Shown one piece after another: positions 38,909 to 62,756 of a DNA stretch of 64,000 nt; the first letter of the stretch is position 1, and each line of letters begins with the position of its first letter. A program made the translations under genes and the position numbers. Origin of the DNA: an uncultured Nitrospiraceae bacterium (GTDB taxonomy: Bacteria > Nitrospirota > Thermodesulfovibrionia > Thermodesulfovibrionales > Thermodesulfovibrionaceae); NCBI GenBank assembly GCA_937139565.1, contig CAKZQH010000106.1:9289-73288 (forward strand), in the 5' to 3' direction. A model generated the notes under the pieces. The model did no database searches and was not told the origin of the DNA. It saw only the letters and a program-made list of their open reading frames with translations.

Positions 38909-39006
38909 TGGCGGGAGTGTGTGGGAATCGAACCCACCATGCCTGCTCCTAACAGGCAGCACTGGATTTGAAGTCCAGGGGGGACACCAGAACCCCATAC
39001 ACTCCC
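38909..39006 (-). tRNA. selC: tRNA-Sec (anticodon UCA)
   Basis: 8-bp acceptor GGGAGTGT/ACACTCCC + GCCA, anticodon arm CTGGA-CTTCAAA-TCCAG, long variable arm TGCCTG/CAGGCA, T arm GTGGG-TTCGATT-CCCAC. Confidence 0.96.
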
Positions 39007-55637: not shown

Positions 55638-55679
55638 GAGTATCCTCCCTCGAGGTCTTATGAAGTCCAAAGGACTTCA

Positions 55680-55826
55680 CCTTAGATAGGTCTTCCGACT
55701 TAGGGCTAATGTGCCTACTTGCCCGCCTTCCCAGAGCATTCGCTCCAGTGGCTAAATTGGGCTTTCGTTCCCTACACGGCTGCGGGGCAGCGGAGGATTC
55801 TCACCTCACTTCCCTTACATCTAAGG
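55680..55826 (-). ncRNA. cobalamin riboswitch
   Basis: Minus strand AAGGGAA..GGTGAGAATCC..GCTGCCCCGCAGCCGTG, GCCACTGG...GGGAAGGC, B12 box AAGTCGGAAGACCT; outer stem CCTTAGAT/ATCTAAGG; upstream of metE. Confidence 0.93.
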
Positions 55827-55880
55827 AATTTAAACTTAAATGAATTATTCAACTCCTGTCAAGATATGATAGAATTAACC

Positions 55881-59042: not shown

Positions 59043-59726
59043 ATGGTGGCTAAAAGATTTAAAGTCATACTCTTTTCTCTTTTAGTGACGGCATTTAACC
59101 TATCTACTATTTCCGAGGTAATTGCAGATTCTATTAAACTTCCTGCTCCTCATTTTGATGGCAAGATTAGCGTTGAGAAAGCCATAAAGGAGAGGCGTTC
59201 TGTGAGAGAATATACCAATAAACCTCTTAACCTTCAAGAAATATCTCAACTTCTCTGGGCAGCTCAGGGAATTACTGATCCCAGAGGACTTAGAACTGCT
59301 CCATCTGCAGGTGCACTTTATCCTTTAGAGATTTATCTTGTGGCCTTTAATGTTCATAATTTACAAAAGGGAGTTTACAAATATAACCCGAAGACCGAGG
59401 AAATTATAAGGATAAAAAATGGAGACTTTAGGGAGGAGTTGACAAAAGCAGCACTGGGTCAGCCCTGGATAAAAAATTCGATGGCTTTAGTTGTGATTGT
59501 TGCCAATTATGAAAGAACTACGAGAAAATACGGACAGAGAGGATTTAGATATGTCCATATGGAGGCAGGAGCAGTAGCACAGAATATCCATCTTCAAGCA
59601 GTATCCTTAGGAATTGGTACAGTTGTTGTAGGGGCTTTCAATGATGAAGATGTAAAGAAAATCATGAATTTTCCCTCTCAAGAAGACCCATTAATAATTA
59701 TGCCCTTAGGAAAAATGAAAAAGTAA
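59043..59726 (+). CDS. SagB/ThcOx-family FMN nitroreductase with signal-peptide-like N-terminus
   Basis: RRSVREY, LLWAAQG, RTAPSAGALYPLE, EAGAVAQN, GAFNDE. Confidence 0.85.
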   Translation: MVAKRFKVILFSLLVTAFNLSTISEVIADSIKLPAPHFDGKISVEKAIKERRSVREYTNKPLNLQEISQLLWAAQGITDPRGLRTAPSAGALYPLEIYLVAFNVHNLQKGVYKYNPKTEEIIRIKNGDFREELTKAALGQPWIKNSMALVVIVANYERTTRKYGQRGFRYVHMEAGAVAQNIHLQAVSLGIGTVVVGAFNDEDVKKIMNFPSQEDPLIIMPLGKMKK

Positions 59727-59938: not shown

Positions 59939-60901
59939 ATGGAAACCTTTTATATTATTGGAATGATAATGGCAGGTCTTTTTTTCGGATGGACAATTGG
60001 CTCCCATTATACCGGTGCAGTTATGGGAACAGCCTATGGTGCTAAACTTGTAACACTAAGAAAGGCAACGTTCTTAATTGCCATAAGTGCTCTTCTTGGA
60101 GCAATGCTTCAGAGTCATGAAGTCGTAAAGACTGTGGGCACAGAGGTTATTTCAAAGGAGTATCTAACGCCATTTAGGGCAATGGTTATGATGCTAAATG
60201 CTGCTCTAGTTACGGCTGTAAACACATGGTTGAAGCTTCCCATTTCAACAGCTCAGCTCGCAGTATTTTCAATTGTAGGGGTTGGACTTGCAACTGCTTC
60301 TCCAATTGCCTGGGAGAGAACCATTTTACCTTTGGCTATTACATGGATTGGGACTCCCATTGTGGGGTGCATTTTAGGTTTTATTCTTACAAAATTTGTT
60401 GGAATTTTTAAGACAAGTGTTTTTGAAAATTTTAAAAAATATGTTCTACTTTTAGTTTGTTGCTATGCCTCTTACACTCTTGGTGCTAACAATAGCGGGC
60501 TTGCTGTGAGTGTACTTTATGGAAGTGGTGTGGTTAAGTCTTTGCTTTTTGGTGGATTCATAGGTGGATTTGTGGTAGGTATTGGAGCTCTCACATGGGG
60601 AAGACCTCTTCTTGAGAAGGTTGGGCTACATATTGTGCAGCTTGACCGTAACAGTGCGATTGGTGCTCAGTTTGCACAGGCTACAACAGCATATATTGCA
60701 GCCTTGCTTGGCTACCCCACATCAATGAATCAGGCAATAGTGGGTGGAATAGCTGGCGCAGGTTTTGCAAGGGGAACTCAGTATGTGAAAATCAAAGTGG
60801 TTAAAGAAATTGTTATAAACTGGTTTGTCTCCTTAGCTGTAGCCTGTGGTACAGCATTTTTACTTTATAAACTGCTTTCAATGTTATTAGGAGATAGTTA
60901 A
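59939..60901 (+). CDS. PiT (PHO4) family inorganic phosphate/anion transporter
   Basis: Multiple TMs, LKLPISTAQ, GANN, GYPTSMNQAIVGGIAG. Confidence 0.82.
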   Translation: METFYIIGMIMAGLFFGWTIGSHYTGAVMGTAYGAKLVTLRKATFLIAISALLGAMLQSHEVVKTVGTEVISKEYLTPFRAMVMMLNAALVTAVNTWLKLPISTAQLAVFSIVGVGLATASPIAWERTILPLAITWIGTPIVGCILGFILTKFVGIFKTSVFENFKKYVLLLVCCYASYTLGANNSGLAVSVLYGSGVVKSLLFGGFIGGFVVGIGALTWGRPLLEKVGLHIVQLDRNSAIGAQFAQATTAYIAALLGYPTSMNQAIVGGIAGAGFARGTQYVKIKVVKEIVINWFVSLAVACGTAFLLYKLLSMLLGDS

Positions 60902-60910
60902 TATCTCTAA

Positions 60911-61336
60911 TTACTTTACTATTGTAACAGGACAGGTTGCATAGGTGGCTACTCTTCTTGAAACTGAGCCAAGTAGCCACCTTTCAATTTTTGACATTCC
61001 CCTTTGTCCCATTATTATTATGTCAACTTGGTTCTCTGCTGCGTATCTTACGATTTGGTCAGCAGGGTGTCCTACCACAATTTCTGTTTTTATTTGCACA
61101 TTATAATCCTTTGCAAGGGTTTGTAGTTTTTCGAACTCCTTCTTGTAGTATTCTGTGGCACTATCAATAACAGCCTTTACTTCTACTATATCAGCAGGCT
61201 CGGGAGGCTGAGAGACTGAAAGAACTAATATTTCCCGCTCTTTGGCTTGGCACTCTTTTGAGAGTTTAAGGGCAAATTCAAAGGCCCTGCATGCTTCTTG
61301 GGAACCATCGAAAGCAACTAAAATTTTCTTAAGCAT
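60911..61336 (-). CDS. universal stress protein
   Basis: KKILVAFDGS, GHPADQI, IIMGQRG, LLGSVS. Confidence 0.93.
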   Translation of the reverse strand: MLKKILVAFDGSQEACRAFEFALKLSKECQAKEREILVLSVSQPPEPADIVEVKAVIDSATEYYKKEFEKLQTLAKDYNVQIKTEIVVGHPADQIVRYAAENQVDIIIMGQRGMSKIERWLLGSVSRRVATYATCPVTIVK

Positions 61337-61338
61337 AA

Positions 61339-62505
61339 TTATTCCTCCTTCTTTCTTTTAGGTAAAAGATATTTTGGTAAATAAAAGGCATTTGCTATAA
61401 ATGTAGGAATTACTGCTGAGCCGATGACAGCAACAATTAAAAGAGAATACTGTGTCTGGTCAATTATTCCGTGGTTGTAACCAAAAAGGGCTGATATTGA
61501 GCCGAATGTAAGTCCGGTGGACATAAGAAGTGTTGTGTACATACCTTCTTTGTGTCTGAATTTAAAAAATTTTGTAATAGGATATACGCCAATAAATTTA
61601 GTTAACATTTTCCCAAAAAGCAGTATGAAAAGCGGTAGTAGCATAACAATGATTGATGGAAGTGAGACAAAGTAGCCTGCTCTTAAGAAATATACTGGAG
61701 TTAGAAATCCGAAGGTAAGTGTGCGAAGTCTTCTAATGAGTCCATGATCTTTACCAACACTTCCAGCCAGAACCATGCCAATAATATATGCAGGAAGCAC
61801 TGCCTCTGAACCTGACCAAATTGCCAGAGCACCTATTCCAAAGAGAACAAACAGAAGATATTTTGCCTCAAACTCTGAAGGTTTTCCTCCTAATTTTTTA
61901 AATATCAAGGGTGTTATAAATGGCAATGAGAGAGAGAGAAACACCGTAGCACCAGCAAAGATAATGGTCTTGAGAGTAAAAGGTGAAAACATTATTCCAA
62001 GCGCCATTACAGTACCCAAGTCATTTACAAAACAGGCAGCAAGAATAATCTTCCCGAATTCTGTTTTGTTAAGTCCAAGCTCAAGCATTACAGCATATAC
62101 AACTGCCACAGATGTTGTTGAAAGAGCAATACCGGCAAGCCAGCTTGCATCAGCTGACCAGTTAAGCATATAGTAAGCAATAGCAGCACAACCTAAAAAA
62201 GGCGTCAAAAAGGCTACTATGCCAATGCCAAGGGTTTCTTTCCATTTTGCCCTCAAAATCTCTGGATCAAGTTCTGCTCCTGCAAGAAATGTAAGGAGTA
62301 TTGCTCCTGTGCTTGATAGAAACTTAAGCCAGGGCTCATTAGCATTGATAATGCTTAATCCAAGGAAGCTTATAAGTATTAGTTGAGCAATGGCACCAAC
62401 GGTTATTTCTGTAAGAGCAGTTGCAAGCTTAAGCTTTGTGGATAAGAAAGTAGCAATTAAAGCGAGAAAAAACCAGAAAGAAGCATTCAGTAAGGTTTCG
62501 TGCAT
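61339..62505 (-). CDS. cation:proton antiporter (CPA2/Na+/H+ exchanger family)
   Basis: About 12 TMs, FLAGAELD, LSTTSVAVV, ACFVNDL, FGFLTPVYF, LLMSTGLTFG. Confidence 0.88.
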   Translation of the reverse strand: MHETLLNASFWFFLALIATFLSTKLKLATALTEITVGAIAQLILISFLGLSIINANEPWLKFLSSTGAILLTFLAGAELDPEILRAKWKETLGIGIVAFLTPFLGCAAIAYYMLNWSADASWLAGIALSTTSVAVVYAVMLELGLNKTEFGKIILAACFVNDLGTVMALGIMFSPFTLKTIIFAGATVFLSLSLPFITPLIFKKLGGKPSEFEAKYLLFVLFGIGALAIWSGSEAVLPAYIIGMVLAGSVGKDHGLIRRLRTLTFGFLTPVYFLRAGYFVSLPSIIVMLLPLFILLFGKMLTKFIGVYPITKFFKFRHKEGMYTTLLMSTGLTFGSISALFGYNHGIIDQTQYSLLIVAVIGSAVIPTFIANAFYLPKYLLPKRKKEE

Positions 62506-62589
62506 AAAAAACTCCTAACCATCTTAGTTTATGGTTAGGAGTCATCATCTCCTAAAAATTAGGAGCACTTAATGACGGACTCCATCGCC
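62506..62589 (-). ncRNA. fluoride (crcB-motif) riboswitch with terminator/anti-SD platform
   Basis: Minus strand GGCGATGGAGTCCGTC...GCTCCTAA/TTAGGAG...TGATGACTCCTA; terminator ACTCCTAACCAT/ATGGTTAGGAGT + U-run directly before ATG; promoter TTGATT-18-TG.TATAAT upstream. Confidence 0.92.
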
Positions 62590-62756
62590 TTGATTCATTA
62601 TAGCACTCGACTTTTTTCAAAATCAATAATTTTTTAGAGAGTTTAAACACTGATGCATAGAATTGCAAAAGAAGCCTTTTAAATTGCTTTGGCAATGAGA
62701 TTAATTTGACTTTTCTTCCTGTTGAGACTATTGCAGTCACTGGATTAAGATCTTGT

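Follow-up and report, generated by a model that had tools for sequence, protein, structure and literature searches.

We analyzed a 64,000-nucleotide (nt) stretch of DNA from an uncultured Nitrospiraceae bacterium (contig CAKZQH010000106.1; hereafter the window), which belongs to a 1.99-Mb assembly with a completeness rating of 99.97%, and focused on a fluoride riboswitch and the two genes behind it, which encode a cation:proton antiporter and a universal stress protein (USP). An earlier reading of the window (hereafter the original prediction) had described a complete unit made up of a promoter, an aptamer, a terminator bearing the Shine-Dalgarno (SD) sequence, a U-tract at the start codon, and the antiporter and USP genes. 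We recovered every part of this unit on the minus strand (Table 1). The antiporter start codon (ATG at 62505) directly follows the terminator TTTT, i.e., the U-tract. At the junction of the two genes (AAGGAGGAA-TAA-TT-ATG), the USP gene starts 2 nt past the antiporter stop codon and its SD (AAGGAGG) lies inside the 3′ end of the antiporter open reading frame (ORF); the USP is probably translationally coupled to the antiporter. The gene 3′ of the USP gene, encoding a PHO4-family transporter, is convergent, and the operon therefore comprises two genes. The stop codons of the transporter and USP genes are ~9 nt apart.

Table 1. Features of the fluoride riboswitch operon and of other loci in the window (aa, amino acids)
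Feature	Position	Strand	Basis
Promoter-like site, sigma-70-like (TTGATT-18 nt-TATAAT with TG extension)	62597..62626	-	Consensus scan, 10/12 positions match
Fluoride riboswitch aptamer (crcB motif, RF01734)	62529..62598	-	cmscan, 42.7 bits versus gathering score 34, E 1.7e-8
Expression platform (13-pair hairpin and U-tract reaching ATG)	62506..62543	-	Terminator scan, folds, direct sequence reading
Antiporter ORF (388 aa), NapA/Kef-like (CPA2-like) cation:proton antiporter	61339..62505	-	PF00999, E 5.4e-37
USP ORF (141 aa), universal stress protein	60911..61336	-	PF00582, E 4.6e-33
PHO4-family (CysP-like) transporter gene	59939..60901	+	
SagB-type nitroreductase-family dehydrogenase gene	59043..59726	+	
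Cobalamin riboswitch, full length	55668..55839	-	87.5 bits
Selenocysteine tRNA gene	38913..39006	-	74.2 bits

The genome contains a single fluoride aptamer. It matched the RF01734 model over its full span (positions 1-64 of 64) with a score exceeding the gathering score. Its P1 helix is formed by GGCG and CGTC (62589-62586/62577-62574), its P2 helix by GCTCCTAA and TTAGGAGA (62566-62559/62555-62548), and its pseudoknot by GGAGT (62583-62579) pairing with ACTCC (62542-62538). This structure was supported when 21 aptamers of the order were aligned, with 500 shuffles and slid registers as controls. More specifically, standard pairs accounted for 95.2% of the pair cells, compensatory changes were present in 8 pairs, and none of the 500 shuffles and no slid register approached this level of pairing. 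Every position that is invariant in the alignment is kept in the window aptamer. The putative promoter lies directly 5′ of the aptamer, a placement that fits a transcript start ~8 nt ahead of P1.

The terminator stem is formed by GACTCCTAACCAT and ATGGTTAGGAGTT with a loop between them (62543-62510). It contains the 12 Watson-Crick pairs that had been counted before, plus one G·U pair. Its 5′ arm includes ACTCC, the 3′ strand of the pseudoknot, and its 3′ arm includes the ribosome-binding site AGGAG (62516-62512). The minimum-free-energy fold (-34.6 kcal/mol, z-score -4.0) is dominated by this hairpin, which also appears in the centroid fold. Because the 5′ arm of the terminator is the 3′ strand of the pseudoknot, fluoride binding should block the terminator, and the competition between expression platform and aptamer is, as read from the sequence, that of an ON switch, in agreement with the original prediction. 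The dual transcriptional and translational control that it had also claimed stands as plausible, given that the 3′ arm of the terminator holds the SD, and fluoride induction of the operon may be expected.

The Bacillus cereus crcB riboswitch, a transcriptional ON type, has the same P1, P2, and GGAGU/ACUCC pseudoknot, shares the conserved blocks GAUGG.GU and UGAUGACUCCUA, and follows the same logic, in which a terminator competes for the 3′ strand of the pseudoknot; in the window, however, the terminator also sequesters the SD in its 3′ arm, and the U-tract runs directly into the start codon. The closest congeners, i.e., the T. yellowstonii group (L013, L006, L003), differ in that their platform has no U-tract. 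In their ligand-free fold, the 5′ arm of P2 (GCCUCU) pairs with the SD (GGAGGC), and on this model their platform is predicted to be a translational switch. The platform with a U-tract terminator is common to the window, to another member of the genus (G009), and to a member of another family of the order (G026; compared loci L018 and L008). One aptamer is combined with two expression platforms within the clade of the window cassette.

The antiporter matched PF00999 over residues 13-367 (128 bits versus a cut-off of 26.2 bits); this was its sole domain match, and no KTN/RCK regulatory domain was found in its 388 aa. Its scores against the KefB and KefC equivalog models were far under their cut-offs. 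The closest PDB sequence was NapA (E 1e-8), and the top Foldseek matches of the AlphaFold (AF2) model were NapA, NHA2, PaNhaP, MjNhaP1, and KefC (TM-scores of 0.69-0.75), with the 50 best fold matches listed all being cation/proton exchangers. Compared with NapA of Thermus thermophilus (PDB 4bwz/5bz2) and KefC (PDB 8bxg), the antiporter has the same fold at ~22% identity, with equivalents of the Thr-Ser of transmembrane helix 4 (TM4), the Asp of TM5, and the Lys of TM10. Profile alignment with hhalign placed N161-D162 opposite NapA D156-D157, K299 opposite K305, and T131-S132 opposite T126-S127; a phmmer pairing of NapA K305 with P309 was replaced by the K299 pairing. D162, K299, T131, and S132 were invariant in all 79 clade sequences, and position 161 was Asn in 53, Thr in 26, and Asp in none, so that Asn or Thr replaces the first residue of the NapA Asp-Asp pair. 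Judging from these alignments, the antiporter retains a cation/proton site with a single carboxylate ([N/T]-D plus Lys). N-D sites of this type are typical of electroneutral exchangers (the ND motif of CPA1). In view of two other (housekeeping) Na_H_Exchanger genes in the genome, the riboswitch-linked antiporter appears to be a dedicated, inducible paralogue.

Whereas KefC carries a KTN/RCK domain, the antiporter has none, and the adjacent gene encodes a separate USP. This USP matched PF00582 over its full length (residues 1-141; 115 bits) and carries, from residue 110, the motif G-x2-G-x9-G-[ST] (GQRGMSKIERWLLGS), which is the mark of ATP-binding (MJ0577-like) USPs and which 62 of the 65 partner USPs share. 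The USP may act as a soluble regulator of the antiporter; the literature search on regulation of antiporters by USPs returned nothing relevant. One antiporter loop, D253-H254-x-L-I-R258-R259-L-R261 (window ~61723-61749, minus strand), was almost invariant among the 79 clade members and aligned by hhalign with E-K-Y-R-L-E of NapA, which has no such Arg cluster. This loop might conceivably be a site for USP docking or gating.

The original prediction had noted that neither crcB nor eriC lies in the window. Our searches bore this out, as crcB and CLC genes were absent from the window, and the absence extends to the genome and, for CrcB, across the genus. Six-frame searches of the genome with PF02537 (CrcB) and PF00654 (Voltage_CLC) gave no match, and the same CrcB and CLC searches matched in 11 and 12 of 14 control genomes, respectively. 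A hidden Markov model that we trained on eight CrcB proteins of the order and ran without filters (--max) in all frames gave a best match at E 0.03 (contig C72), which was rejected as spurious because it was a 34-residue stretch in a non-coding frame. Protein names place the window genome in the genus Thermodesulfovibrio. CrcB was likewise missing from all 21 species genomes of this genus, four of them closed or nearly closed, and a CLC was found in just one of the 21 (G013, with the match in a 590-aa open frame). Across the order, 24 of 41 genomes carried a fluoride aptamer, and 15 of these 24 had neither CrcB nor CLC. A free-living genus that keeps a fluoride sensor without an exporter is unusual. 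The antiporter belongs to the same regulon as Fluc (CrcB) and CLC-F and would respond to the same inducing signal; in contrast, it is unrelated to these exporters in sequence and fold, both of their families are absent from the genome, and the antiporter is unlikely to move fluoride ions (F−).

With each prokaryotic species represented by one genome, a pattern scan recovered at least 591 genomes with a relative, and we analyzed the best 80 loci. In these, the antiporter was 57-77% identical to the query, and the loci spanned at least 8 phyla (Nitrospirota, Thermodesulfobacteriota, Acidobacteriota, Alpha-/Beta-/Gammaproteobacteria, Planctomycetota, Methylomirabilota, and Chlamydiota); conservation of the clade was unusually high, with this range of identity held across phyla and ~50 invariant polar residues. 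With a covariance model built from the 21 aptamers of the order, a same-strand fluoride aptamer was detected 5′ of the antiporter at 70 of the 80 loci, 54 of which had it no more than 300 nt away, and a USP lay directly downstream in at least 63. At 39 of the 80, crcB was located within 4 kb on the same strand, either between the riboswitch and the antiporter or after the USP. At the level of whole genomes, 37 of 50 carriers tested (74%) had CrcB somewhere, and the remaining 13 had neither CrcB nor a CLC bearing CLC-F signatures; the CLCs of crcB-less carriers were rejected as CLC-F, as none had the GNNLI/GMGLI, GREGT/V, or GEVTP signatures. The antiporter clade co-occurs with crcB at roughly chance frequency or above. 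Given that crcB shares the operon or flanks in half of the loci and is present in 37 of 50 genomes, the cassette seems to complement the exporter rather than to replace it. Whether residue 161 is Asn or Thr bore no clear relation to crcB (Asn, 19 with and 9 without crcB; Thr, 8 with and 2 without).

The clade was also present on 38 plasmid records, mostly conjugative plasmids of Enterobacteriaceae. On the conjugative IncFIB plasmid NZ_CP058867 of K. pneumoniae (77857-85706; L112), an antiporter-USP pair (61% identity) is followed by two MutS-like genes, with a P-type ATPase gene, crcB, and gpmA on the opposite strand. This arrangement resembles the E. cloacae FRM fluoride island, where fluoride induces uspA 120-fold (PMC5533749). 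A 2024 review ranks Na+/H+ antiporters as the commonest riboswitch-associated class after the exporters, i.e., second overall (PMC11139923), and the pairing of genes for an "Na+/H+ antiporter" and a USP in the fluoride regulon goes back to 2012 (Baker et al. 2012, as far as that work is represented in PMC11139923). The window cassette has the same gene classes behind the same riboswitch as these published examples (Baker et al., as represented there; uspA of E. cloacae FRM, PMC5533749), and the same clade and antiporter-USP order recur in the sampled loci and beside crcB on enterobacterial plasmids. The riboswitch-antiporter-USP cassette is therefore not new; it is an old, common, and known accessory arm of the fluoride regulon. 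What sets the window apart is that the cassette is the sole riboswitch target in its genome, in a genus without Fluc and, G013 excepted, without CLC.

A second Na_H_Exchanger clade (~400 aa), with no BLASTP similarity to the window antiporter, was found behind fluoride riboswitches in four genomes from other families of the order (L009, L015, L016, L019). Its sequence suggests that it was recruited independently, and recruitment of a second, unrelated clade in turn suggests that generic cation/proton activity is the selected trait. Other fluoride riboswitch targets in related genomes were a dynamin-family GTPase (PF00350; L020 in G032) and an NuoH-like NADH-dehydrogenase subunit (PF00146; L002 in G024).

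The candidate resistance mechanism put forward in the original prediction is not supported by these observations as a distinctly new one: the cassette is widespread, it is already in the literature, and it is found with crcB at the loci and in the genomes counted above. Conservation of Asp162 and Lys299 throughout the clade and the presence of an unrelated Na_H_Exchanger clade behind the same riboswitch argue against it as well.

In a maximum-likelihood tree of 90 clade members, the antiporters mostly followed phyla, from which we conclude that the identity across phyla reflects strong constraint and not recent transfer. Recent horizontal spread is accordingly disfavored as its cause, although the clade does occur on conjugative plasmids. 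Nitrospirota formed one clade (support 100/99), in whose basal members crcB follows the USP gene. No crcB follows the USP gene in the Thermodesulfovibrionales subclade that includes the window (14 rows, support 89/81), one member of which (G026) has crcB just 5′ of the riboswitch. These gene orders are most simply read as loss of crcB from an ancestral cassette of riboswitch, antiporter, USP, and crcB.

Within Thermodesulfovibrio, an intact riboswitch-antiporter-USP module was present in at least 10 species, with antiporters 71-77% identical to that of the window. In two others, G013 (L005) and G014 (L011), the aptamer is intact and an internal deletion has reduced the operon to a remnant consisting of antiporter residues 1-37 and USP residues 107-141, which in G014 are joined to each other. 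G017 retains antiporter residues 210-388 only and has no aptamer, and G001, G010, and G012 (99% complete) lack the entire module. Thus, the module is dispensable in the genus.

We propose, with moderate confidence, that the operon encodes a fluoride-inducible cation/proton exchanger whose role is to reset the pH gradient under regulation by the USP, that this exchanger is not an F− transporter, and that crcB was lost from the ancestral cassette. Without fluoride, the leader would form the terminator hairpin, which would also hide the ribosome-binding site. F− bound with Mg2+ would stabilize the GGAGU/ACUCC pseudoknot and hold the 5′ arm of the hairpin, whereupon transcription would read through and the SD would be free, both effects acting in the same direction. 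The first product would be a NapA/Kef-like antiporter that exchanges monovalent cations for protons at a single-carboxylate site and lacks a fused regulatory domain, and the second an ATP-binding USP serving as its soluble regulator; together they would contribute pH and ion homeostasis to the bacterial fluoride response as an accessory arm. We infer the transported ions, the direction, and the part played by the USP as follows. In the direction that we prefer, K+ (or Na+) would move out and H+ in, such that the transmembrane pH gradient would be lowered. In exporter-less E. coli, F− accumulation quantitatively follows [F−]in/[F−]out = [H+]out/[H+]in (PMC4144673). In a cell without an exit for F−, the pH gradient alone would set cytoplasmic fluoride, and a lower gradient would mean less trapping. 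In a Fluc-bearing cell, the same exchange would shift the proton-motive force to membrane potential, which would drive F− out via the channel. In Thermodesulfovibrio, crcB would have been lost and the antiporter-USP arm left alone. A Kef-like exchanger that is kept off until needed fits the tight riboswitch control, the separate nucleotide-binding partner, and the single carboxylate in place of the Asp-Asp of NapA. Na+/H+ antiporters and intracellular acidification have been tied to fluoride tolerance (PMC11139923).

The alternative that we take most seriously, though we consider it rather unlikely, is that the antiporter runs the other way, expelling H+ for Na+ (or K+) and so countering acidification driven by hydrogen fluoride (HF) and loss of the proton-motive force. 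Cells have been described as countering fluoride acidification by expressing Na+/H+ antiporters (PMC11139923), and the [N/T]-D single-carboxylate site is compatible with either direction, as that of an electroneutral exchanger is set by gradients alone. Yet a cell with no exporter would have no HF/F− cycling, and its proton load would be capped by the F− accumulated (an extension of the equation in PMC4144673); moreover, a higher cytoplasmic pH would trap more F−, and the exchange would need an inward Na+ gradient exceeding the pH gradient. It is also improbable that the cassette is an evolutionary leftover of crcB loss that gives little or no protection and is decaying. The deletion remnants in G013 and G014, the G017 fragment without a riboswitch, and the absence of the module from G001, G010, and G012 are what such decay would produce, and the score of the window aptamer is the lowest in the genus (42.7 bits versus 46-60). 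Against decay, however, stand the species (at least 10) with intact riboswitch, antiporter, and USP, the retention by the window antiporter of every clade-invariant residue, D162 and K299 included, and the persistence of all invariant positions in the aptamer together with an expression platform that is strong and well placed.

Least probable of the explanations that we weighed is that the [N/T]-D clade is a third bacterial fluoride exporter, carrying F− or HF coupled to H+ or a cation, and the only one of Thermodesulfovibrio. We likewise see only a slim chance that this clade together with the USP is a self-sufficient resistance device that replaces Fluc/CLC-F in exporter-less lineages, in its boldest form an F−/HF transporter with the NhaA fold. 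An exporter would account for antiporter and USP being the sole genes behind the sole fluoride riboswitch of a genome without CrcB and CLC, and for a clade that is nearly always linked to the riboswitch (70 of 80) and exceptionally conserved, as well as for the 13 of 50 other carrier genomes without CrcB or a CLC with CLC-F signatures. On the other hand, the invariant Asp162/Lys299 correspond to the cation/proton site of NapA/KefC-type antiporters, the 50 best fold matches listed lead to the same class of exchangers, crcB shares operons with the antiporter at about half of the loci and is present in 74% of genomes, an unrelated cation:proton antiporter clade was recruited likewise, and congeners without the module are exporter-less too. 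The two proven exporters are nearly mutually exclusive, with ~3% of strains having both (PMC11139923), and co-occurrence with crcB therefore counts against the antiporter being an exporter. The conserved cation site, the fold matches, the co-occurrence with crcB, and the second clade together favor cation/proton exchange over F− transport. Of the two functions that the original prediction had left side by side, F− export by the antiporter itself is thus unlikely, given the cation site and the crcB co-occurrence, and the pH-related role is the better supported.

Several points weigh against pH-gradient resetting by a cation/proton exchanger. The published direction is the opposite one, namely H+ extrusion to counter acidification (PMC11139923), and which ions are carried, and which way they move, cannot be read from sequence. 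The Asp-Asp pair in TM5 of electrogenic CPA2 members (NapA D156-D157) is not present in the antiporter, which has N161-D162. Its score against TIGR00932 (2a37, CPA2) was 109.1 bits, under the trusted cut-off of 238.3 bits, and we therefore call the protein CPA2-like rather than a certified CPA2 member. The quality of the structural model is only moderate, with a predicted local distance difference test (pLDDT) score of 65.5 and a predicted template modeling (pTM) score of 0.72. The high conservation of the clade could mean that its substrate is more specialized than K+ or Na+. Furthermore, the congeners without the module are also without an exporter, such that its contribution to fitness in the niche may be small. 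Finally, the literature searched contained no expression or transport results for the antiporter clade.

The original prediction was right that the role of riboswitch-linked Na+/H+ antiporters is not established: they are common, yet the literature searched contained no paper testing their function. A search for Thermodesulfovibrio with fluoride returned nothing relevant. Our analysis adds that antiporters of the window type make up a single clade that is tightly conserved, is defined by the riboswitch, and combines a fixed USP partner with a single-carboxylate site. It also adds a free-living genus, represented by several closed genomes, in which the antiporter-USP pair constitutes the only recognizable fluoride-response genes, with close relatives from which the module has been deleted as natural controls. 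Thermodesulfovibrio, a hot-spring sulfate reducer, thereby offers a clean natural system for distinguishing whether such antiporters change the pH gradient, expel protons, or move fluoride.

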